Assembly: GCA_964457085.1 (NCBI GenBank)
Contig: CAYWDM010000003.1
Location: forward strand, 128,514-192,513
Reading direction: 5' to 3'
DNA from: an uncultured Pseudomonadales bacterium
GTDB taxonomy: Bacteria; Patescibacteriota; Microgenomatia; UBA1400; PJMF01
Length of the DNA stretch: 64,000 nucleotides
Program-made: the position numbers and the translations under genes
The notes under the pieces: model-generated
What the model was told of the DNA's origin: nothing
Database searches by the model: none
The model's input: only the letters and a program-made list of their open reading frames with translations
Part shown: piece after piece, positions 5,390-31,796 of the stretch
Numbering within the stretch: position 1 is the stretch's first letter
Layout of the letters: each line of letters starts with the position of its first letter

Positions 5390-6706
5390 ATGAGCGAACA
5401 CTACAACCCAAAACTACCTCCGCATGACATGGACGCGGAGCGTAGTGTGTTAGCTGCGGCTCTGATTGATCCTGAAGCCATGATCAAGGCGACTGAATTA
5501 TTGCGGCCAGAGAGTTTTTACGCACGAGCCCATCAAGAGATTTTCGAGGCAATGACTATTCTCTTTGAACAGCGTGAGCCAATAGATGTGGTGACTTTGA
5601 CAAATCAGTTGAAAAAGATGAAGAAACTGTCTGTAGTTGGTGGTGCAAGTGCACTGTCACAGCTCTCGACAATTGTTTCAACCTCAGCAAATGTTGGCCA
5701 CTACGCAGGCTTGGTTCGAGAATATTTTGTCAAAAGACAGCTGATTAGTTTGTCAGCTGAGATGAGTGACATGGCATTTGATGATGGTAAGAATATTAAA
5801 GATGTTTTGGACTTGGCAGAGCAGAAAGTGTTGGGGATTTCTCAGTTACACAACACCAAAGCCTTTATTCCAATTAAAAATACCTTGGTAGAGAGCTTTG
5901 ACCGTCTTGATGAGTTGCAGCGTTCTGGAAGTGATTTACGTGGTGTGCCCACTGGATTTCAAGATGTCGACGCAATGTTGGCAGGATTGCAGAAATCTAA
6001 TTTAATTATTTTGGCTGCACGTCCAGGTATGGGAAAGACTGCATTTGCAATTAACATCGCACAAAATGTGGCGGTGTTGGCAAAGAAGAAAGTTGGCGTA
6101 TTTTCACTAGAAATGAGTAGAGAAGAGTTGGTTGACCGGTTGTTGGTGGCACAGGCAGATATTGATGCTTGGAAACTTAAAACTGGCCGACTCGATCAAC
6201 AAGACTTTTTGAAACTTTCGGATGCGATGGGGGTTTTGGCAGAGGCACAGTTATTTATTGACGATACTCCAGGATTATCTATCTACGACATGCGAACTAA
6301 AGCTCGCCGGTTGATGACAGAGCAACACATTGATTTGCTGATAGTTGACTATTTGCAGTTAGCTCAAGGCAAAACAAAAGACAATCGTGTGCAGGAAGTG
6401 GCAGAGATTTCTCAGGGTTTGAAAAACATTGCTCGTGAGTTGAAGATTCCGGTAATTGCCTTGTCTCAGCTCTCTCGTGCCATTGAACAGCGTGGCGAAA
6501 AATCGCCGCAGCTATCAGATCTTCGTGAGTCAGGTTCTATTGAACAGGATGCTGACGTAGTGATGTTCTTATATCGTAAAGATGATGACATTCGTGAAGC
6601 AGTCTCACTTAAGATTGCTAAACACCGTAATGGGGCACTTGGTGAAGTTGAGCTCTATTTCCGTGGTGATCGCGTACGTTTCTACGGTATGGAAAAGAGA
6701 CTATAA
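5390..6706 (+). CDS. dnaB: Replicative DNA helicase DnaB
   Basis: 438 aa. The N-terminal domain starts near ERSVLAAAL. Walker A ARPGMGKTAF, with the DnaB H2-H4 motifs (LIVDYLQL, SQLSR). Confidence 0.95.
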   Translation: MSEHYNPKLPPHDMDAERSVLAAALIDPEAMIKATELLRPESFYARAHQEIFEAMTILFEQREPIDVVTLTNQLKKMKKLSVVGGASALSQLSTIVSTSANVGHYAGLVREYFVKRQLISLSAEMSDMAFDDGKNIKDVLDLAEQKVLGISQLHNTKAFIPIKNTLVESFDRLDELQRSGSDLRGVPTGFQDVDAMLAGLQKSNLIILAARPGMGKTAFAINIAQNVAVLAKKKVGVFSLEMSREELVDRLLVAQADIDAWKLKTGRLDQQDFLKLSDAMGVLAEAQLFIDDTPGLSIYDMRTKARRLMTEQHIDLLIVDYLQLAQGKTKDNRVQEVAEISQGLKNIARELKIPVIALSQLSRAIEQRGEKSPQLSDLRESGSIEQDADVVMFLYRKDDDIREAVSLKIAKHRNGALGEVELYFRGDRVRFYGMEKRL

Positions 6707-24567: not shown

Positions 24568-25506
24568 ATGGCGATCTCTACTCTACCAGCTGTTGCGATG
24601 ATCGATTTTCTCGAGGCAATTGAGGTTGAGAGAAATCTAAGTCGACTCACAATTCGCAATTATGGCCATTATTTGCGCAGATTCAATGACTGGTTTATTA
24701 AGCAAGGATACACTGATCTCAAACAATTGGACCGTGATGTGATGCGTAAGTACCGAATTTTCTTAGCACGGTATGTAGATGACCAAGCAAGAATGCTGTC
24801 GAAGAAAACTCAAAGCTATCACGTGATTGCCATGCGTTCTTGGTTGAAATGGTTGGTTAAAAATGACGCTGCAGTACTTGCTCCTGAGAAAGTTGACCTT
24901 CCCAAGGCGGAGTCAACTCCAATGAAGTTTATGATGGCGGATAAAATTGAGCGCTTGCTGAGTCAACCTCTGAGCTCTACCCCACCAGGCTTACGTGATA
25001 AGGCAATGCTTGAGGTACTCTTTTCTACAGGGTTGCGGGTGAGTGAGCTTGTAGGTATGAATCGAGACCAGATTGATCTCGATAGGCGAGAGTTTGGGGT
25101 GATAGGCAAAGGGCGTCGACCTAGAGTGGTGTTTTTGAGTGAACGTGCTCATTTATGGTTGTCTCGTTGGCTAAACAGTCGAGAGGATAATTGGCGGCCA
25201 GTTTTTGTAAATTTCTCTGGTAAAAAATGTGATCCCTATGCCGATGGCGAAGAAAAACGGCTTTCCACACGTAGTGTTCAGCGAATGGTTGATACATATT
25301 GCCGGAAGGCAAAATTGCCTATTAAGCTCAGTCCGCATGGCATAAGACACAGCTTTGCAACTGATCTTTTAGCGAATGGTGCGGGGCTTCGCGATGTTCA
25401 AGAAATGCTGGGTCATAAAAACATCGCAACCACTCAAATCTATACACACGTTACCCGTCCACAATTAAAAAAGGCCTATGATTCATTCCATACTAAGCTT
25501 GAATGA
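24568..25506 (+). CDS. Tyrosine recombinase, XerC/XerD family
   Basis: Catalytic-domain motifs RDKAMLEVLFSTGLRVSELVGM (box I, Arg), GKGRRPRVVFL (K), HGIRHSFATDLLANGAGLRDVQEMLGHKNIATTQIYTHV (H-R-H...Y). Confidence 0.9.
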   Translation: MAISTLPAVAMIDFLEAIEVERNLSRLTIRNYGHYLRRFNDWFIKQGYTDLKQLDRDVMRKYRIFLARYVDDQARMLSKKTQSYHVIAMRSWLKWLVKNDAAVLAPEKVDLPKAESTPMKFMMADKIERLLSQPLSSTPPGLRDKAMLEVLFSTGLRVSELVGMNRDQIDLDRREFGVIGKGRRPRVVFLSERAHLWLSRWLNSREDNWRPVFVNFSGKKCDPYADGEEKRLSTRSVQRMVDTYCRKAKLPIKLSPHGIRHSFATDLLANGAGLRDVQEMLGHKNIATTQIYTHVTRPQLKKAYDSFHTKLE

Positions 25507-25775: not shown

Positions 25776-25849
25776 GGGCCGATAGCTCAGTTGGCTAGAG
25801 CGCCTGCATGGCATGCAGGAGGTCAGGGGTTCGAGCCCCCTCCGGTCCA
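25776..25849 (+). tRNA. tRNA-Ala (anticodon GGC)
   Basis: Acceptor GGGCCGA with a G3:U70 pair. D-arm GCTC-AGTTGGCTA-GAGC. Anticodon stem CCTGC/GCAGG with loop ATGGCAT gives GGC. T-arm AGGGG-TTCGAGC-CCCCT. One A7:C66 mismatch. Confidence 0.8.
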
Positions 25850-25890: not shown

Positions 25891-26117
25891 ATTTGAATCT
25901 CATCAGATTCTTGAAATGCGTAAAGCGATACCTTTACATCAAGCTTTAGATGATCCACCAATCCTTTTTGCTATTTTGTTGTTTGTCTGTTATACTGCCG
26001 TTCTTCGGTTTGAAAAGGTGAGCTTTCCCCTTAATGTGATTCTTTCCAGAAGGTTTGTTAGAAATAACGACAACGTGCCGCTTGCGAAAGCGCGAGCAGC
26101 CTTGTTGGAAAGAGTAT

Positions 26118-27329
26118 ATGTTATACGCTCACAGCGGACGTTTTCGTCCGTCATCTTCATTTGGTTCTAGAGGTCCAAATCGCCGCCGATCTGATCGGGG
26201 TCATGCTGGATTTCGCTCGAACTCAACACCTATTGCAGCTAGTCGCTATGTCAACCAAGCTGCCGAGTTGATCGAAGGCCCAAAGGCTGTTATCACCCAT
26301 CAATTCACTGATTTTGGTCTAGATGAAAGAATTGTTGCCAACGTAGTCAGACATGGATATGGCGAACCAACTCCAATTCAAGACCAGATAATTCCTTTAA
26401 TGCTGACTGGGAAAGATGTGGTTGGTATTGCTAATACAGGTACAGGTAAAACTGCAGCTTTCTTATTACCATTACTGCACAAGGTATTGAATGATAACAA
26501 ACAAGGGGTCTTGATCGTGGTGCCTACTCGAGAGTTGGCAGCCCAAATTCGAGATGAATTGACTCATTTCGCTCAAGATCTTCCAGTAAGTATGTGTCTG
26601 TGCGTAGGCGGCGTTGGTATTCAACCCCAAATCAGCAAAGTCTCGCATAATCCACATTTTGTGATTGGTACTCCAGGTCGAATCAAAGACTTAGTTAATA
26701 GAGGAGCTTTAAAAACTGCCTCATACACTAACGTCGTACTTGATGAAGTCGACCGGATGCTGGACATAGGATTTGTGCATGATATTCGTTTCTTAATTGA
26801 TCGATTGCCAGCTGTGCGTCAATCTGGTTTCTTTAGTGCAACCATGACCAACCAAGTGAAGCCAATCATGCAGTCATTTCTAGACAATCCAGTGACGGTA
26901 AGTGTTGAAACTGCTCGGACTAGTGCACACATCCATCAAGATGTAGTTCGCATTGCTCCAGGCCAGAACAAAGCTGAAGTCTTGCATGACTTGTTGATTC
27001 AAGAAGAATTCAGTCGAGTGATTGTGTTTGGTAGAACCAAGCATGGCATCAACAAACTCGAAATGATGCTGTCTGGTAGAGGGTTACGCGTTTGTGCTAT
27101 TCATGGCAACAAATCTCAAAATGCTAGACAACAGGCTTTGCAGCAATTCAAACGAGGATTTGCCCAAGCTCTACTGGCCACCGATGTGGCAGCTAGAGGT
27201 ATCGACATTGATGGTGTAACTCATGTCATTAACTATGACGAGCCAAACTGTTATGACGATTACGTCCATCGTATTGGTCGAACCGGTCGAGCTGGCAAAA
27301 CCGGCAAAGCTTTAACTTTCGTCGGCTAA
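26118..27329 (+). CDS. DEAD-box ATP-dependent RNA helicase with an Arg/Gly-rich N-terminal tail
   Basis: Q motif plus motif I (GYGEPTPIQDQ...ANTGTGKTAAF). Motif II is DEVD. SAT motif. Motif VI HRIGRTGRAG. Start uncertain (26055 TTG or 26118 ATG). Confidence 0.9.
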   Translation: MLYAHSGRFRPSSSFGSRGPNRRRSDRGHAGFRSNSTPIAASRYVNQAAELIEGPKAVITHQFTDFGLDERIVANVVRHGYGEPTPIQDQIIPLMLTGKDVVGIANTGTGKTAAFLLPLLHKVLNDNKQGVLIVVPTRELAAQIRDELTHFAQDLPVSMCLCVGGVGIQPQISKVSHNPHFVIGTPGRIKDLVNRGALKTASYTNVVLDEVDRMLDIGFVHDIRFLIDRLPAVRQSGFFSATMTNQVKPIMQSFLDNPVTVSVETARTSAHIHQDVVRIAPGQNKAEVLHDLLIQEEFSRVIVFGRTKHGINKLEMMLSGRGLRVCAIHGNKSQNARQQALQQFKRGFAQALLATDVAARGIDIDGVTHVINYDEPNCYDDYVHRIGRTGRAGKTGKALTFVG

Positions 27330-27358
27330 TTGACAATAACAAGCAATATTGATATATT
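27330..27358 (+). promoter_or_regulatory. Cassette-1 sigma70-type promoter, immediately after the helicase stop codon
   Basis: TTGACA at 27330-27335 (-35), then a 17-nt spacer, then TATATT at 27353-27358 (-10). Confidence 0.55.
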
Positions 27359-27567
27359 ATAGGATGTACTGTTGCCTGCTGGGTGTTTCTCAACTTGGCG
27401 ACTGTACAAACTTTTAGGCACGTTAACAGGAAAAAGGAAGAGAAAAAGTGGTGGTCGAACTGAGCGACTGACTGGTTTTAAACCAGATCGGATGCTGAGT
27501 TTGACCACCACACAAAGGCTGTGTAGCCTGTGGTGTAATTTTTTTTACAGCCCGGAGGGCATAAAGC

Positions 27568-27783
27568 ATGGCAAACGTAAAAGTTGCAGAAGCAAAAGAT
27601 CGACTCGTTGAGGTTAAAAGGAAAGAGGACATCGTCCCGATCCTGGAAAAACTTGACAGCGATCTGGATAGATTTACTGCGTTGGATTTAGCGGTTAGTT
27701 TTGCTGAGTCCAATCTCGAAGAAACCGCTCCGATTCAAGAATGGCTCAAGTTTTATCGAGACATTTATCGCGGGCAAAAATAA
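27568..27783 (+). CDS. Small protein, 71 aa (cassette 1), hypothetical
   Basis: GGAGG SD 9 nt upstream of the ATG. Helical, charged protein (MANVKVAEAKDRLVEVKRKEDIV...). Preceded by an approximately 200-nt structured leader. Confidence 0.55.
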   Translation: MANVKVAEAKDRLVEVKRKEDIVPILEKLDSDLDRFTALDLAVSFAESNLEETAPIQEWLKFYRDIYRGQK

Positions 27784-27815
27784 CGTATTTTCTCTCTCCT
27801 CCTCCAGTTTCGTGC

Positions 27816-27866
27816 CAGGCCCCGCTCTCAACAAGTGGGGCTTGTCATTTTCAAACACCTTTTTTG
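27816..27866 (+). terminator. Cassette-1 intrinsic terminator
   Basis: Roughly 10-bp stem (CAGGCCCCGC ... GTGGGGCTTG), followed by the conserved tail CTTGTCATTTTCAAACACCTTTTTTG. Confidence 0.55.
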
Positions 27867-27872
27867 AGTATC

Positions 27873-27901
27873 TTGACCAAATAACCAATGATTGATATAT
27901 T
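27873..27901 (+). promoter_or_regulatory. Cassette-2 sigma70-type promoter
   Basis: TTGACC, then a 17-nt spacer, then TATATT. Near-identical to the cassette 1 and 3 promoters, including the TATATTAT(G/A)GG start region. Confidence 0.55.
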
Positions 27902-28094
27902 ATGGGCTGTCATATTGCCACTTAGAATTATTTCTATCAAGGCGATTTGGCAAATAGAATCGGCACGTTAATAGTTGAAATGATTAGAGTCACTTAAAGT
28001 GGTGGTTGGCAAAGCTGTTTATTTTGACAGTTTTGCCAACCACCACTAGCCCGTAAGGCTTGAGGTGAGAATTTTTTCTCAGGAGAACATGGTT

Positions 28095-28310
28095 ATGAAC
28101 TTCACAGAAGTCACAGAGCATTTAGCGATTTGCGATGACAAAAGTCGCGCCCAGAAGTTGCTGGAATATCTGGATGCAACTCGTCATAAGGAAGCACTGC
28201 TGGAAGCTCGGCGTCTCGCCGGGCAGACAGTAGGCGTTAGTCTTCAAGGAGGCGAAAAGCATCCTCGAATGGTTATGCTCCAGGAGATGATTAACAAGCT
28301 CACCGAGTGA
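28095..28310 (+). CDS. Small protein, 71 aa (cassette 2), hypothetical
   Basis: AGGAG SD 9 nt upstream of the ATG at 28095; the in-frame ATG at 28089 has only 3-nt spacing. The track ORF 28065 starts at a GTG. Confidence 0.55.
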   Translation: MNFTEVTEHLAICDDKSRAQKLLEYLDATRHKEALLEARRLAGQTVGVSLQGGEKHPRMVMLQEMINKLTE

Positions 28311-28333
28311 CCTATATTTTGACCCAACGTGCC

Positions 28334-28383
28334 AAGCCCTTCCCCTAATCCGGAAGGGCTTGTCATTTCTAAATACTTTTTTT
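28334..28383 (+). terminator. Cassette-2 intrinsic terminator
   Basis: 10-bp perfect stem AAGCCCTTCC / GGAAGGGCTT, then the conserved tail TGTCATTTCTAAATACTTTTTTTTG. Confidence 0.65.
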
Positions 28384-28405
28384 GCATAAATACAAAAAAA
28401 CTTTC

Positions 28406-28433
28406 TTGACTTGTCTGGTAAAGATGATATATT
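28406..28433 (+). promoter_or_regulatory. Cassette-3 sigma70-type promoter
   Basis: TTGACT, then a 16-nt spacer, then TATATT, then ATGGG. Confidence 0.55.
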
Positions 28434-28619
28434 ATGGGTCGTGATGAGCTGCTTGGATGACTTTGGCTGTCTATAGCGGCGAAATCGCATGTACGTTAAC
28501 AGAGGAAGAAGAAATGAAGTGGTAATCGAGTGAAATCTTCATTGAAGTTGGAGGTTTAATTTGATTACCACTTTTCAGCGTGAGAGGTGGGTCAAAATTC
28601 TTAGCAAGAGAGGTGTTTC

Positions 28620-28817
28620 ATGCCAGCAGTTTATGATCGATATACTGTTCGATGGCTGTTGATTTATGCAGCCAATACCGTGGAAATAAGTACCGCCTTT
28701 AAAGACAATAAAGTGCCTGAGGCAGACCAGCGTGGTCTGCTTGAAGAGGCTTTGGCCGATGACGCGGTCAAACCTGGGTCGAAATCGGCTGAGTTGCTTG
28801 GTTCACTGCTCACATAG
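28620..28817 (+). CDS. Small protein, 65 aa (cassette 3), hypothetical
   Basis: GAGAGG SD 6 nt upstream of the ATG. The leader carries the same ACGTTAACAG box and a GTGGTAATC/GATTACCAC helix. Confidence 0.5.
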   Translation: MPAVYDRYTVRWLLIYAANTVEISTAFKDNKVPEADQRGLLEEALADDAVKPGSKSAELLGSLLT

Positions 28818-28893
28818 TCATCTTTTCCTCCTTAACGTTGGGCCCTCTTCTTTGCGGAAGGGGGCTCAACTACTTTTAGGACCTTTTTTAACC

Positions 28894-28922
28894 AAAAAAC
28901 CCGTCATTGCTGGCGGGTTTTT
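28894..28922. terminator. Bidirectional intrinsic terminator shared by cassette 3 and convergent gyrA
   Basis: AAAAAA, then CCCGTCA-TTGC-TGGCGGG, then TTTTT. A second hairpin at 28839-28866 lies upstream. Confidence 0.65.
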
Positions 28923-28940
28923 CAATTACAAAACTAAAAA

Positions 28941-31796
28941 CTATTTTTTCTCTTCTCCGATTTCTTCTTTTTCGACTAAGGCTACAGCCACAACACAGTC
29001 GGTCTCTTTGAGTTTCATCAAAATCACGCCTTGTGTTGGTCGAGTTAGTAGTGGTACTGAGCTTCCTTTCAAAGGCAATTTGATGGTGGTGCCTTCTTTG
29101 GTGCTGATAACTACGTTTTCGTCGAGAGGTCCAATGAGCTTGGCAGCGGCAATTTTACCAGTGCGTGAGGTGACTTCTGCAACTTTAACGCCAAGACCAG
29201 ATCGTTTTTGTACTGGGTATTGGCTGAGCAAGGTTTTCTTGCCGAGACCGTTTTCAGTGACGATCAGCAACGGGGTCTTGTTGAGAATAGCTGGGTCTTC
29301 TGGGAACGCTTCTACGCCGATGACATAGTCGCTGGCTCGCAAAGTGATGCCACGGACACCTTTGGTGTCACGTTGAGAAGACTTGACCTCAACCTCGCTA
29401 AAGCGGATTGATTTACCTTCGTATGAAATCAACATAATGTTGTCTTCACCAGAGGTAATTTTGCCCCAGACCAACTCATCTTCCTTATTAAGTGAAATAG
29501 CGACGATGCCGTTTTGGCGAATATTGTCGTAAAGCTTGACTGCAGTTTTCTTAACTAATCCCTGGCGGGTGGCCAAGGTGATGTATTTGGTAGCATCGCC
29601 AATTTCGTCGAAAACGATGATTGATTGGGCTCGCTCCTCGGCTTTTAGGTTGAGCAAATTAACGATAGCAGTTCCCTTGGCTTGGCGACTGGCATCTGGC
29701 ATTTCGTGTGCCTTCATCCGGAAAACACGACCTTGGTTGGTAAAGATTAGTAAAGTGTCGTGAGTGGTACAGCTGACCAAGCACTTAAGCATGTCCTCGT
29801 GCTTCATCGAGAGACCCATGGCACCTTTGCCACCTCTGGATTGTGAGCGGAATGAGCCTGGGCTCATACGTTTTACATAGCCACTCTCAGTGAGTGTGAT
29901 CACAGTTGCTTCATCAGCAACCAGATCTTCTTCACTAAATTCATCAACCTTGCCTTTGACTAATTTAGTCTTGCGAGCATCGCCATACAAACCGATGAGT
30001 TCATTGGTTTCACTGACAACTACATCGAGAATTTCTTGTGGGTGACTCAAGAGTTTAATTAATTTACCGATTGTTTCTTGAATGGCTTTATATTCATCCT
30101 CAATCTTCTGACGCTCGAGAGCAGCTAGTCGTTTGAGTTGCATTTCAAGGATGGCAGTTGATTGAATGTCGCTGAGACCAAACTTAGCCATCAGTGCGTT
30201 ATGAGCTGTCTCAGTGTCTGGAGAGCGTCTAATGGTATCAATTACGTCATCTAGATTTTTAAGTGCAATGAGTAATCCCTCTAGGATATGAGCCCGATCT
30301 CTGGACTCAGAGAGCTCATATTGACTTCTTTTCACAATCACTAGCTGGCGATGGACAATATATTCCTTGAGCACTTGGCGGATGTTCATCAGCTGAGGAG
30401 TACCCTCACTGTTGAGTGCCACCATGTTTAAGGAAAAAGTAGTCTGGAGATCAGTGTACTTGAATAATTTATTGAGAATGACTTTTGGCTTGGCATCGCG
30501 CTTCAACTCGATGGTCATCTGCATACCTTTACGGTCAGAGTCATCTCTAAGACTGCGAATACCAACGATTTTTTTATCGCGTACTAGATCAGCAATCTTC
30601 ATTAATAATTTGGCTTTGTTGACTTGATATGGGAGTTCAGTAATTACAATCTTGAAGCTGCCCTTTTCACCTTCTTCAATCGAGGCTTTACCACGAATTA
30701 AGATTCGACCCTTACCAGTTTGGTAGGCCTGCTTGATGGTGGCAAAATCGTAGATAATGGCTGCAGTTGGGAAATCTGGACCTTTAACATATTCCATGAT
30801 TTCTTCGACAGTGGTCTCGGAATTGAATTCTCCGGCCAGCATTTTTGGATCTGCATGCAAGAGTGTTTCGACTTCAGTACTGGTTGAAAGTGCGATTTCT
30901 GAGGGTGCAGAGGCAGTTGTGGCTTTGGCTGCCAGTGAATCGACAGCTTTTTTGTTAGCAGTGGCTGACTCTCCCTCGGTTTGAATCGAGGTGGCGGTGC
31001 CAGCTTTGATCATGGCGATGACCGCATTACTCACCTCAGTGAGATTATGTGGTGGAATTTTGGTAGCCATACCAACGGCAATGCCTTCAGAACCCATGAG
31101 TAACAGATTTGGCAATCTGGTGGGAAGCACTAATGGTTCTTTGATGGAGCCATCGAAGTTATCCCCCATCGGTACAGTGTTTTTATTGAGATCGGCAAGT
31201 AATTCTTGGGAAATCTTAGCTAACCGAGCCTCGGTGTAACGCATAGCAGCTGGGCTATCGCCATCGATAGAACCAAAGTTTCCTTGGCCATCAATCAGTG
31301 GATATCGCATGCTAAATGACTGTGCAAGTCTAACTAATGCCATGTAGACAGAGGAATCACCATGGGGGTGATAGCGACCGAGCACATCACCGACAATACG
31401 GGCTGATTTTTTATATGAACCACTGTGGTGAATGCCACTTTTAAACATTGAGAACAAGATGCGACGATGCACTGGCTTGAGTCCATCACGAACATCTGGT
31501 AGTGCACGAGCTACGATGACGCTCATGGCGTAGTCAAGATAACTCTTCTCCATTTCATCTACGATCGACATGTGTTTAAACTTGCCAAACCTGGTCTCTT
31601 CAATGGTGCCGATCAATGAGGCTGCTGCCTCGGCAGCTAGTTCTTGTTCGGAAACGGATTGATTTTCAGGAGTAAGCTCCACGACAGCAGCTTCAGCTGC
31701 TAGTTCATCAGCGGTGAGATCTGCTGACTCAACCTCATCGATTTCCTCGACTTCGGCTACTTCGTTTTCGTTATCTGGACGATCTTGATCTGTCAT
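28941..31796 (-). CDS. gyrA: DNA gyrase subunit A (951 aa, with an Ala/Ser/Thr-rich insertion of about 55-60 aa)
   Basis: Active-site region AMRYTEARL (Tyr). N-terminal acidic extension. C-terminal beta-pinwheel repeats. The insertion lies between [16 protein letters not shown] and [10 protein letters not shown]. Confidence 0.97.

Follow-up and report, generated by a model that had tools for sequence, protein, structure and literature searches.

Intramolecular pairing of the 5′ UTR with the 3′ UTR in bacterial mRNAs has been described in a small number of single-gene cases, namely hbs, icaR and type I toxin mRNAs; among the toxin mRNAs, hok carries a fold-back lock, tac/fbi. In the hbs mRNA of Bacillus subtilis, a 14-bp interaction of the 5′ and 3′ UTRs controls the access of RNase Y and J1 (PMC5737220). 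In icaR of Staphylococcus aureus, an anti-Shine-Dalgarno (anti-SD) motif in the 3′ UTR, UCCCCUG, pairs with the SD region in the 5′ UTR (PMC3868564). The aapA1 message is a type I toxin mRNA with a fold-back lock (PMC5416894, PMC6733600), in which translation is hindered by the fold of the full-length RNA and the message becomes active upon 3′ processing (PMC5416894). Two further systems resemble parts of the locus described here: STAB-SD, an SD-like sequence in the 5′ UTR that stabilises the cry3A mRNA of Bacillus thuringiensis (PMC4113751), and the integron or chromosomal cassette arrays and replacement genomic islands (PMC4033161), where variable small ORFs of unknown function are interspersed with non-coding elements that are conserved, and the content is exchanged between close relatives.

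The locus lies in a 64-kb stretch of DNA, which was analysed as a whole and is called the window in the following. Between the DEAD-box helicase gene and gyrA, three tandem units occupy positions 27330-28925 of the plus strand, and each has a near-consensus promoter, a structured leader, an SD, an ORF of 65-71 aa and a GC-rich terminator hairpin. This organisation had been proposed in a preliminary description of the window, and it was borne out by separate checks of promoters, ORFs, folds and terminators. The features are as follows (P1 and P2, leader hairpins; MFE, minimum free energy fold):

27330-27358, plus strand: unit 1 promoter, TTGACA, N17, TG-n-TATATT, 11/12 consensus matches
27365-27408, plus strand: unit 1 P1, 5′-proximal hairpin (MFE; type-A consensus structure with compensatory changes)
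27417-27446, plus strand: unit 1 5′ arm, box 1 GGCACGTTAAC and a purine, SD-like run (MFE pairing)
27448-27511, plus strand: unit 1 P2, long near-perfect hairpin (MFE; covariation)
27554-27783, plus strand: unit 1 SD GGAGGG (27554-27559) and ORF1 (27568-27783, 71 aa, pI 4.9)
27788-27816, plus strand: unit 1 3′ arm, pyrimidine run UUUUCUCUCUCCUCCUCC ... CGUGCC, abutting the terminator (MFE pairing, duplex test)
27816-27850, plus strand: unit 1 terminator hairpin (27816-27844) and interrupted U tract, CTTGTCATTTTC (terminator scan)
27873-27901, plus strand: unit 2 promoter, TTGACC, N17, TATATT with TG
27908-27951, plus strand: unit 2 P1 (MFE; type-A consensus)
27962-27995, plus strand: unit 2 5′ arm, box 1 GGCACGTTAAT and a run that is not purine-rich, AGUUGAAAUGAUUAGAGUCAC (MFE pairing)
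27998-28047, plus strand: unit 2 P2, about 22 bp (MFE; type-A consensus)
28082-28310, plus strand: unit 2 SD GGAG (28082-28085) and ORF2 (28095-28310, 71 aa)
28305-28333, plus strand: unit 2 3′ arm, GUGACCUAUAUUUUGACCCAACGUGCC, overlapping the last codons and stop of ORF2 (MFE pairing)
28333-28368, plus strand: unit 2 terminator hairpin (28333-28362) and tail (terminator scan)
28406-28433, plus strand: unit 3 promoter, TTGACT, N16, TATATT with TG
28441-28488, plus strand: unit 3 P1, type B shape (MFE; type-B consensus)
28495-28517, plus strand: unit 3 5′ arm, ACGTTAAC and purine run AGAGGAAGAAGAAAUGA (MFE pairing; type B covariation)
28516-28574, plus strand: unit 3 P2 (MFE; type-B consensus)
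28606-28817, plus strand: unit 3 SD AGAGAGG and ORF3 (28620-28817, 65 aa)
28821-28836, plus strand: unit 3 3′ arm, CAUCUUUUCCUCCUUAACGU (MFE pairing, duplex test, type B alignment)
28837-28870, plus strand: unit 3 terminator hairpin (terminator scan)
28893-28922, no strand assigned: second hairpin after unit 3, AAAAAACCCGTCATTGCTGGCGGGTTTTTC, outside the repeated unit; the only Rfam look-alikes are terminator-like sRNA and leader hits

The near-identical promoters reported at 27330, 27873 and 28406 were recovered with 10-11 of 12 consensus matches (TTGACA, TTGACC or TTGACT, N16-17, TATATT, with TG upstream), and the -35 element of unit 1 is overlapped by the helicase stop codon. All occurrences of the sequence GATATATTATRGG in the 64-kb window, three in number, fall within the units; the boxes YACGTTAAYAG and AAGTGGTRRTYG are likewise confined to the three units, and neither the rest of the window nor 498 kb of DNA has a further copy. 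Units 1 and 2 have promoter and tail sequence in common. The terminator tail that had been called conserved is a property of these two units and not of unit 3, which has another tail followed by the hairpin at 28893-28922.

The anticipated leaders of about 200 nt measure 207, 191 and 184 nt in units 1, 2 and 3, counted from the inferred start at RGG, and they fold better than shuffled sequences with z of -6.2, -8.0 and -3.3, respectively. In unit 1, P1 begins about 4 nt past the inferred transcript start (27361-27363, AGG). Compensatory changes occur at 21 of 52 pairs of P1 and P2 in type A leaders and at 14 of 48 in type B leaders; these counts are few because the sample is small and phylogenetically narrow, comprising 13 complete units and one partial unit from 6 close genomes. 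The plus-strand fold is 16-55 kcal/mol better than that of the minus strand, with about twice as many G·U pairs. At the gathering threshold, Rfam returned three tRNAs only from the whole window; in E-value mode, 27200-29000 gave sub-threshold hairpin or terminator look-alikes, the best of which reached 31 bits where the gathering score is 55.

As expected, each unit encodes one small protein behind an SD, of 71, 71 and 65 aa. Judged from sequence, the ORFs are real genes. The SD and a length of 64-71 aa are retained in 15/15 ORFs, substitutions fall 5/4/22 on the three codon positions in one pair of orthologues (L8a and L57a), and dN/dS is 0.31 and 0.30 compared with 0.05 for the helicase. The products are acidic and hydrophilic (pI 4.4-6.3, GRAVY -0.47 to +0.08) and lack any transmembrane-like stretch (Kyte-Doolittle maximum over 19 residues, 0.36-0.95). 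ORF1 is an orphan, matching only itself among 5.8e9 proteins, and ORF2 and ORF3 gave self matches only in large protein databases. The proteins had been said to belong to no recognised family, and this held: no match to the profile libraries (Pfam, NCBIfam, PHROGs, PADLOC) had an E below about 0.02, those to PDB sequence profiles had E of 0.19 or higher, and the best Foldseek match to the PDB had E 0.48 with a query model of pLDDT 71. The AF2 models of ORF2 and ORF3 show four helices each, at low confidence (pLDDT 71 and 65). The coding content had also been called unrelated. Pairwise BLASTP indeed finds no similarity among the three proteins; however, ORF2 falls into family A, which is found again in relatives (P of 2e-6 to 2e-4 by hmmsearch; for ORF2, 2.4e-4 with the a1 profile and 7.7e-4 with the a2 profile), ORF3 falls into family B with the motif VPxxDxxxLLEEAL (P 1e-7 to 1e-9), and all products are acidic and 64-71 aa long. 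No significant similarity links family A to family B, or ORF1 to either.

In every unit, leader box 1 (GCRCGTTAAYA) and the run next to it have their complement in the 3′ UTR, in the stretch from the stop codon to the terminator. A leader/3′-UTR helix of 15-30 bp, spanning about 340-390 nt, is predicted in the MFE of 7/7 whole units folded, a kind of prediction that is unreliable for long-range pairs in 450-nt RNAs when used alone. Complementary arms, with compensatory changes among them, are present in 13/13 complete units of the 6 related metagenome contigs. For SIGNIFICANCE, the arm-arm duplex has -17 to -30 kcal/mol and z of -2.6 to -6.7 (7 units), and 0/500 shuffles matched it in 6 of the 7. 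In unit 1, nucleotides 57-86 pair with 428-456 (-29.4 kcal/mol, z -5.7, 0/500 shuffles). In unit 3, 60-77 pair with 386-401 (z -2.6, 4/500 shuffles). In unit 2, 59-92 pair with 402-430 (-24.2 kcal/mol, z -5.6), and the 5′ arm finds a far better partner in its own 3′ arm than in that of any other unit, which means that both arms changed together. Unit 2 has neither the purine nor the pyrimidine run, yet it keeps 24 pairs; thus the pairing, rather than SD mimicry, appears to be the conserved trait. The type B core helix has 95.7% of cells paired compared with 18-41% in slid controls; it contains two double changes from G-C to A-U and a single G·U. In the contig L056, GAGACAAAAG pairs with CUUUGUCUC, and in L055 and L056 CAUUAA pairs with UUAAUG; in both, the helix encloses two ORFs and the 3′ arm lies 3′ of the second, so the pairing closes the whole transcript. 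On these models, the units carry complementary 5′ and 3′ UTR segments maintained by selection, as do mRNAs of the hbs/icaR type. When the 3′ arm was deleted in silico, the predicted accessibility of box 1 and its run rose from 0.26 to 0.58 and that of the SD/AUG was unchanged (0.43 vs 0.44).

For Patescibacteria, RNA decay of the Gram-positive type is plausible. With hbs, the units have in common a monocistronic small-protein message, a highly structured 5′ UTR and a long-range helix joining the two UTRs, of 14 bp in hbs and of a predicted 15-30 bp in the units, which concerns nuclease access rather than the SD in hbs and would do so here. They differ in showing no sequence or structural homology to hbs, in a helix that abuts the terminator and is joined by a 5′-terminal hairpin and a 50-64-nt hairpin, and in a chassis, predicted as yet, that is repeated in tandem with differing ORFs. 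As with icaR, the pairing would create a potential RNase III substrate; however, icaR engages its functional SD and blocks translation, whereas the units have as target an upstream SD-like run, some 100-130 nt ahead of the real SD. Predicted access to the real SD is unaffected, and in one unit all SD-like character is missing. STAB-SD offers another parallel, as an SD-like purine sequence far upstream of the start codon that does not initiate the main ORF. STAB-SD is proposed to bind the 30S subunit, whereas the run in the units is predicted to be occupied by an anti-SD mimic of the 3′ UTR and is dispensable in unit 2.

The preliminary description had proposed a search of related genomes for the scaffold with different ORFs, and such cases were found among the 13 complete units of the 6 contigs. 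The locus sits at the same chromosomal site in 6/6 genomes, and one scaffold carries one or two ORFs. The five relatives are roughly equidistant (helicase nucleotide identity 81-87%), with leader identities of 75-86% for unit a and 64-82% for unit b, and protein identities of 26-89% for ORF-a and 23-72% for ORF-b. In unit a orthologues, leader, ORF and 3′ UTR are 86%, 57% and 82% identical; similarity drops sharply at the start codon or the last base of P2 and then again at the stop codon. The claim that non-coding DNA is better conserved than coding DNA is clearly right only for orthologous units of related genomes; among the three units of the window, overall leader identity (55-58%) does not exceed ORF identity (50-56%), and short boxes and secondary structure are what is conserved. 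Sequence comparison supports the view that the coding content behaves like a cassette on a conserved, selected non-coding frame, and diverged paralogs from tandem duplication would be the simpler origin of the ORFs. Of the cassette platform that had been suggested, the conserved frame, the exchanged content and the one- or two-ORF versions stand; site-specific cassette machinery and attC-like sites were not found at the locus.

We propose, as the probable explanation, that the units are mRNAs for small proteins, monocistronic or sometimes bicistronic, with an end-lock for stability or processing, in a recombination-prone locus. Each unit would be transcribed independently and encode a protein that is small, acidic, lineage-specific and probably helical; from a strong sigma-70-type promoter, a transcript of some 450-490 nt would be made, or one of some 630-680 nt where two ORFs are present. 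From the 5′ end, the predicted chassis consists of P1 at the extreme end, the single-stranded box 1 with its mostly SD-like purine run, P2, the SD and ORF(s), the 3′ UTR and the abutting GC-rich terminator hairpin. The 3′ UTR, with a mostly anti-SD-like pyrimidine run and the complement of box 1, would pair back to the leader, looping off the coding region in a helix contiguous with the terminator stem. Together with P1, this end-lock may yield either a message that is long-lived and resists nucleases or a defined stalk for processing; it would hide the SD-like run once transcription is complete and probably does not block the real ribosome-binding site directly. The locus would have arisen by tandem duplication and would now be a hot spot of recombination, where exchangeable ORF alleles lie between conserved segments of the chassis and homologous recombination in these flanks may effect the exchange. 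Promoters, terminators, conserved and covarying structure, 5′-3′ complementarity, the coding status of the ORFs and their mosaic evolution are shown by the sequences; the role in stability or processing, the mechanism of exchange and any protein function are proposals, and the reason for the chassis is a matter of conjecture.

Four other readings, and one more that is already disfavoured, bear on the same evidence. First, it is possible, though we hold it doubtful, that the locus is an undescribed system of a Patescibacteria lineage, in which an RNA chassis receives exchangeable inserts coding for conflict-related small acidic proteins. Promoter, 5′ hairpin, end-lock, long hairpin and terminator would form a fixed chromosomal dock, hypervariable alleles would be swapped in by homologous recombination, and the RNA elements would double as homology arms. 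The inserts might, for example, provide immunity, counter effectors, or act as inhibitors in an episymbiotic lifestyle. Conflict-related inserts would explain the ancient allele classes, the purifying selection and the shuffling among equidistant genomes.

Second, translational control in the manner of icaR, or a ribosome-dependent switch, is unlikely. Here the anti-SD-like run of the 3′ UTR, or the SD-like leader run together with a mini-uORF, would gate the true ribosome-binding site, for example by allowing a co-transcriptional pulse of translation that is shut off once the 3′ arm is made. The icaR precedent (PMC3868564) gives this reading its form, and the mimics are widespread: CUCCUCC- or UCUCC-type anti-SD mimics occur in 11/13 3′ arms, and GAGGAG/GAGGAAG- or related purine-type SD mimics in 12/13 leader arms, the exceptions being unit 2, which lacks both runs, and unit b of L056, which lacks the mimic in the 3′ arm only. 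In addition, type A leaders hold the SD inside a helix, with the 5′-terminal GGG paired to the SD-adjacent CCC in 6/7, and most units have an AUG or GUG with a frame of 3-7 codons at the base of P2. However, these mini-uORFs are conserved among units neither in length nor in sequence, the helix of unit 2 persists with no SD or anti-SD character, and the 3′ arm has no effect on the predicted accessibility of the true SD. The alternative pairing of the P2 3′ strand with the downstream GUGG segment is no better than in shuffles or non-cognate pairs in most units, except L7b (0/300 shuffles) and L56a (3/300).

Third, and less likely still, the units could resemble type I toxin-antitoxin loci, in which the 5′-3′ fold-back keeps the mRNA of a harmful protein inert, 3′ processing activates it and an antisense RNA counters it. 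The layout is shared with hok and aapA1, for which the full-length fold of aapA1 is the precedent (PMC5416894): small-ORF mRNAs of about 400-500 nt, strong promoters, leaders of about 200 nt, a full-length transcript locked by a 5′-3′ interaction, and tandem, strain-variable loci of narrow distribution. The toxins of that class are small and usually hydrophobic or membrane-active, whereas the products here are hydrophilic, acidic and, at 64-71 aa, longer than typical type I toxins. The predicted interaction also leaves the real SD outside the lock, so an SD-sequestering lock is not what is seen. A consensus promoter scan of the minus strand, which a non-consensus promoter or a trans-encoded RNA would escape, found no antisense promoter in the window units and two weak, non-conserved ones in L007. 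Purifying selection on a retained allele fits a toxin but gives no argument for one.

Fourth, we regard it as very improbable that the inverted repeats are recombination sites at the DNA level (an inverton, an integron-like cassette, or a MITE or IS remnant) and the RNA pairing is incidental. The arms form a DNA inverted repeat; the long-range helix has 0-3 G·U pairs and should be equally stable on the minus strand, so the helix alone leaves a DNA-level role possible. ORF content is exchanged among relatives at sharp boundaries, and a tyrosine recombinase (24568-25506) lies 2 kb upstream of the units. This enzyme, however, is of the XerC/D type (XerC 245 bits, XerD 230) and not an integron integrase (98 bits, cut-off 265), and a tRNA gene and the helicase gene intervene. 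No attC-like pair RYYYAAC...GTTRRRY exists on either strand of 27330-28925, box 1 reading GTTAACA and so breaking GTTRRRY. An integron array, whose cassettes are mostly promoterless, was rejected for want of attC and IntI; here, every unit brings a promoter and a terminator of its own, and the exchange boundaries are compatible with homologous recombination within flanks that are conserved, at one fixed chromosomal site between the helicase gene and gyrA. The possibility of a known repeat or IS remnant, raised at the outset, was checked as well: there is no transposase, no dispersed copy in either the window or 498 kb of DNA, and no blastn match to phage and plasmid collections. None of the 6 genomes has an inverted unit, the mosaic boundaries lie at the ATG or P2 end and at the stop codon rather than at the repeat arms, and the remaining fold of the unit is specific to the plus strand.

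An ordinary recent tandem duplication, with conservation due to the youth of the copies and a functionless structure, is scarcely credible: the units are adjacent and of the same architecture, and units 1 and 2 are alike in promoter and tail, but the copies are old, with leaders 55-58% identical, the same as the ORFs, yet with every helix kept by compensatory changes, and orthologous leaders (75-86%) are conserved at the level of a housekeeping gene (helicase, 81-87% of nucleotides); synonymous sites differ at 54%.

To our knowledge, post-transcriptional regulation in Patescibacteria (CPR) is poorly explored, and nothing comparable was found in the literature on CPR/Saccharibacteria RNAs, small proteins and variable loci. 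Under the end-lock reading that we favour, 5′-3′ pairing would be a conserved, covarying and repeated design principle, which persists across paralogs with no recognisable coding relation and across one- and two-ORF versions. The locus, whose distribution so far is very narrow (6 close genomes), may thus be a clean natural test bed for end-lock function. A constrained frame with mosaic, allele-swapped inserts is the signature usual at conflict loci, and it points to small acidic proteins that may matter in episymbiont biology. The 5′-3′ complementarity, the organising feature of the units, was absent from the preliminary description. At the downstream border, the hairpin at 28893-28922 looks like a bidirectional terminator common to unit 3 and the convergent gyrA, and the same element is present 3′ of unit b in L057.

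The three window units lie head-to-tail on the plus strand (27330-28925). They are flanked on one side by a DEAD-box helicase gene's stop codon and on the other by the 3' end of gyrA, which is convergent with them.

26055/26118-27329: DEAD-box helicase gene
27330, 27873 and 28406, plus strand: promoters of units 1, 2 and 3, TTGAC(A/C/T), N16-17, with TG before TATATT
27568-27783, 28095-28310 and 28620-28817, plus strand: ORF1, ORF2 and ORF3, the small-protein genes of units 1, 2 and 3, each with an SD
27816-27844, 28333-28362 and 28837-28870, plus strand: terminators, each a GC-rich hairpin plus an interrupted U tract
28941-31796, minus strand: gyrA, convergent with the units

The preliminary description of this layout (promoter, leader, SD, ORF and terminator, three times over) is accurate with two corrections, since the parts of each unit were located, the shared motifs are unit-specific and the leaders fold beyond shuffles. 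The promoters match the consensus at 10-11 of 12 positions, and a consensus promoter scan of the region found 7 promoter-like sites against 2.2 expected. Counted from the conserved RGG after TATATTAT, the leaders of units 1, 2 and 3 are 207, 191 and 184 nt long, with folding z scores of -6.2, -8.0 and -3.3 against shuffled controls. The motifs GATATATTATRGG, YACGTTAAYAG and AAGTGGTRRTYG are confined to the three units, with essentially none elsewhere within the 64 kb. The conserved tail said to follow each terminator is present in units 1 and 2, but not in unit 3. Higher conservation of noncoding than of coding sequence, also claimed, does not hold among the window paralogs, whose leaders are 55-58% and ORFs 50-56% identical; their conservation is restricted to boxes and structure.

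The central feature of the units is a predicted long-range helix joining the two ends of the transcript. Box 1 (GCRCRTTAAYA) and the run that follows it, together the 5' arm, are complementary to the stretch of 3' UTR that separates the stop codon from the terminator hairpin (the 3' arm). In most cases the run is rich in purines and resembles an SD, as in AGAGGAAGAAG or AAGAGGAGAAAA, with matching 3' UTRs such as UUUCUCCUCC...UUAACGC or ...ACGUGCC. All of the first seven whole units folded have this helix in their MFE structure, with 15-30 pairs and a span of about 340-390 nt; the arm-arm duplexes reach -17 to -30 kcal/mol (z -2.6 to -6.7 in seven units), and in 6 of the 7, none of 500 shuffles was as good. 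Window unit 2 forms 24 arm pairs despite having neither a purine nor a pyrimidine run, and no other 3' arm pairs with its 5' arm nearly as well as its own does (-24.2 versus -18.9 or weaker). Covariation is also seen. In the 7-9-bp core helix of the type B leaders (those of window unit 3 and of the relatives' second unit), 95.7% of cells are paired, versus 18-41% when one side is slid; there are two double changes from G-C to A-U and one G.U, and the observed score was reached by 8 of 500 shuffles. In L055 and L056, two related metagenome contigs, CGUUAA has become CAUUAA jointly with a change of UUAACG to UUAAUG, and in L056 GAGACAAAAG faces CUUUGUCUC in the arm pairing. The second unit of these two contigs (L055 5795-6422, L056 5877-6550) is bicistronic: one promoter-leader frame carries two family-B ORFs, of 64 aa and 66 or 67 aa, which overlap or are spaced by 10 nt. 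No 3' arm or terminator occurs until after the second ORF; thus, the predicted pairing closes the transcript and not the individual gene. Because no gap separates the 3' arm from the terminator stem, the long-range and terminator helices are contiguous and may stack.

The rest of the leader is also structured. P1, a 5'-terminal hairpin, begins about 4 nt past the presumed transcript start, and P2, a long hairpin, lies just 3' of the 5' arm. Type A leaders, those of window units 1 and 2 and of the first unit of five relatives, also have a short P3; their RNAalifold consensus holds 52 pairs, 21 with compensatory changes, and that of type B holds 48 pairs, 14 with such changes. In 6 of 7 leaders, the type A consensus fold pairs the 5'-terminal GGG with a CCC that adjoins the SD on its 5' side (in the window, 27904-27906 with 28076-28080; columns 1-3 with 205-207 of alignment A9). 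This GGG is invariant and part of the conserved TATATTATGGG, and the modelled pairing may explain why the bases past the -10 are so strongly conserved. Whole units fold 16-55 kcal/mol better as the plus strand than as the minus strand, with about twice the G.U pairs, from which we argue that the structure exists at the RNA level on the plus strand; taken by itself, the long-range helix contains few G.U pairs and does not tell the strands apart. The units are best described as bacterial mRNAs with a 5'/3'-UTR interaction under selection.

We propose the following role. The units combine a hairpin at the 5' terminus, a predicted 5'-3' helix that adjoins the terminator without a gap and, usually, an SD-like run well ahead of the real SD. 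Together these resemble features by which Gram-positive mRNAs are shielded from decay by 5' exonucleases and endonucleases. In B. subtilis, a 14-bp interaction of the 5' UTR with the 3' UTR of hbs mRNA modulates cleavage by RNase Y (PMC5737220), and the STAB-SD element of cry3A is a precedent for mRNA protection (PMC4113751). Considering this likeness and these precedents, we favour an end-lock that would make an abundant small protein's mRNA either long-lived or precisely processed. Confidence is limited by the narrow distribution.

Two rival roles were weighed. First, the 3' arm could block translation directly, as in icaR (PMC3868564). This is less likely, since the real SD lies outside the 5'-3' helix, unit 2 retains the helix without SD or anti-SD character, and in silico deletion of the 3' arm leaves SD/AUG accessibility unchanged (0.43 versus 0.44), so that the accessibility prediction does not support SD masking; the same deletion does unmask the leader arm (0.26 to 0.58). 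Second, a toxin lock of the hok/aapA1 type (PMC5416894) has its layout in common with the units but fails on toxin type and SD involvement and probably on antisense RNA: the ORF products are hydrophilic and acidic and thus not typical type I toxins, and consensus promoter scans found no consistent minus-strand promoter for an antisense RNA. The units matched no Rfam family at gathering or permissive thresholds and are not a T-box, riboswitch or known leader. The suspicion that the scaffold is a known repeat is rejected for integron, IS and MITE alike, as there is no attC-like site, no similar phage or plasmid DNA and no further copy in 498 kb; a tyrosine recombinase 2 kb upstream of the units scores as XerC/D and not as an integron integrase.

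Two further leader elements lie at and beyond P2.

27441-27465, 27975-27995 and 28512-28523: short frames with AUG or GUG at the P2 base, at the same position in relatives
27531-27553, 28064-28078 and 28587-28600: in the stretch from P2 to the SD, a GUGG-type segment with an A/U-rich run (AAUUUUUU) after it; relatives likewise

In most units, an AUG or GUG stands at or near the base of P2, 5-14 nt past the SD-like purine run, and opens a frame of 3-7 codons (MKW*, MQK*, MSRWLV*, MIRVT*), or about 38 codons in the second unit of L008. Neither the length nor the sequence of these uORFs is conserved, and they could be chance or a ribosome-loading device. Pairing of the 3' strand of P2 with GUGG...AAUUUUUU, as a switch, attenuator or SD release, looked persuasive on inspection but was no better than in shuffles or non-cognate pairs, apart from L7b (the second unit of L007; 0 of 300 shuffles) and L56a (the first unit of L056; 3 of 300); because it otherwise fails these controls, we do not rely on it.

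ORF1, ORF2 and ORF3 each found only themselves as a genuine match in large protein collections; the search was therefore extended outward through the neighbouring helicase. By its best named homologs, the organism belongs to Patescibacteria and probably to Saccharimonadia. Six contigs share the arrangement, with units placed from the helicase gene to gyrA: L007, L008, L055, L056 and L057 with two units each and L009 with a single partial unit, while L058 holds only the start of one unit. Contigs carrying units have a helicase 78-82% identical to that of the window; the synteny walk found no units in contigs with a helicase 64-68% identical, and the units are limited to genomes with helicase identity of at least 78%. 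The sample comprises 13 complete units and 1 partial unit. Source assemblies of the organism are GCA_041445565.1 and SRR12261225, and the relatives are in SRR8925812, SRR24079477, SRR21707647 and JGI 3300076002. A mixed MAFFT alignment of both leader types gave no usable consensus, and an nhmmer profile (promoter, P1 and box 1) served for searching; over 498 kb it found the known units only. The exact box 1 to P2 pattern had 5 matches in 185,579 species genomes, all chance; the exact -10 to box 1 pattern returned, from JGI metagenomes, L008's own contig and 3 chance matches inside unrelated ORFs; a looser pattern had 36 matches in viral contigs, none fitting the nhmmer profile. As the pattern scans yield chance matches and L008's own contig only, the element is either rare or fast-diverging outside its clade. 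It is real but, within the reach of these searches, confined to one narrow clade.

Five relatives carry the mosaic history of the locus. They are roughly equidistant, with 81-87% helicase nucleotide identity, and their leaders are 75-86% (unit a, the first unit) and 64-82% (unit b, the second) identical. Protein identity ranges from 26 to 89% for the unit-a ORF and from 23 to 72% for the unit-b ORF, a pattern discordant with the helicase. Here the noncoding sequence is indeed the better conserved: windowed identity in unit a steps sharply from 80-100% to 33-60% at the start codon and is back at 77-100% from near the stop codon on, and the 5' step of unit b falls exactly at the last base of P2. 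These steps indicate that the chassis, the conserved RNA frame around the ORFs, is strongly constrained and sometimes freshly exchanged. L007 1990-2235 and L055 5694-5940 (alignment A8) share about 245 nt at about 96% identity, covering the unit-a terminator and the unit-b promoter, P1, box 1 and P2, and are unrelated past P2; their helicase genes are 84% identical. Such a stretch suggests that the chassis was recently recombined or gene-converted. The inserts are old, discrete alleles that have been reshuffled, each under purifying selection, and the boundaries suggest homologous recombination in conserved RNA-coding flanks at a fixed locus. The idea of a cassette platform thus gains real support from the mosaicism of ORF and chassis, but the boundaries do not suggest site-specific capture; the observation in the preliminary description is confirmed and its interpretation partly supported. 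It is unusual that a repeated, covarying chassis is kept across coding inserts no longer recognisably related, and that it sits at a mosaic locus of a CPR lineage.

Coding-sequence evidence shows the small ORFs to be genes. All 15 ORFs retain an SD and encode 64-71 aa, and their products are hydrophilic and acidic; the seven analysed have a pI of 4.4-6.3 and lack any hydrophobic segment. The unit-a ORFs of L008 and L057 are a common allele (89% aa identity), whose 31 nucleotide differences are distributed 5/4/22 over codon positions 1, 2 and 3. The dN/dS is 0.31 for L7b versus L8b and 0.30, with dS saturated, for L7a versus L8a; that of the helicase is 0.05. The coding content had been called unrelated. 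Similarity among ORF1, ORF2 and ORF3 is indeed not significant by BLASTP or hhalign (best E 0.2), yet ORF2 and ORF3 fall in recurring families: local profile searches place ORF2 with L7a, L8a, L57a, L55a and L56a in family A (P 2e-6 to 2e-4) and ORF3 with the b and c ORFs in family B (P 1e-7 to 1e-9). Similarity is not significant between families A and B (local HMMs P 0.004-0.05; hhalign E 0.2), so that "unrelated" stays tenable for the three, nor between ORF1 and either family (local HMMs, P >0.01). The simplest history is tandem duplication with a common origin of the ORFs. The small proteins matched no family in Pfam, NCBIfam, PHROG or PADLOC and no sequence relative in the PDB. The sole non-self match of ORF3 in a 1.8-billion-protein library, P0124, is a His-tagged six-fold-repeat synthetic construct, a contaminant and not a homolog. 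Single-sequence AlphaFold models of ORF2 and ORF3 each have four helices with similar boundaries at low confidence (pLDDT 71 and 65), and the Foldseek fold search of the PDB was uninformative.

The surroundings of the units also vary. The helicase stop TAA (27327-27329) adjoins the unit 1 -35 directly in the window (TAATTGACA, 27327-27335), versus 60-300 nt from stop to first unit in relatives. The helicase gene has no downstream terminator in the window, and its transcription possibly reads through into unit 1. A DEAD-box RNA helicase gene beside the structured mRNAs is kept in 6 of 6 genomes, all close relatives. The helicase ORF can be extended upstream to a TTG at 26055, giving 424 aa where the call from 26118 has 403 aa. 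Its start is overlapped by an ORF of 84 aa (25916-26170), and a tRNA gene (25776-25849) lies just upstream of that ORF. L007 (2571-2837), L008 (3461-3730) and L056 (6587-6850) have an additional gene of about 87-89 aa on the minus strand, in the gap that separates the last unit from gyrA, with weak matches only (PADLOC PDC-S05, E 0.005; Pfam fvmX5, E 0.12). It is absent in the window and L057, and L055 has an unrelated 76-aa ORF in its place (6447-6677, minus strand); this differing gene content adds to the evidence for variability of the helicase-gyrA gap.
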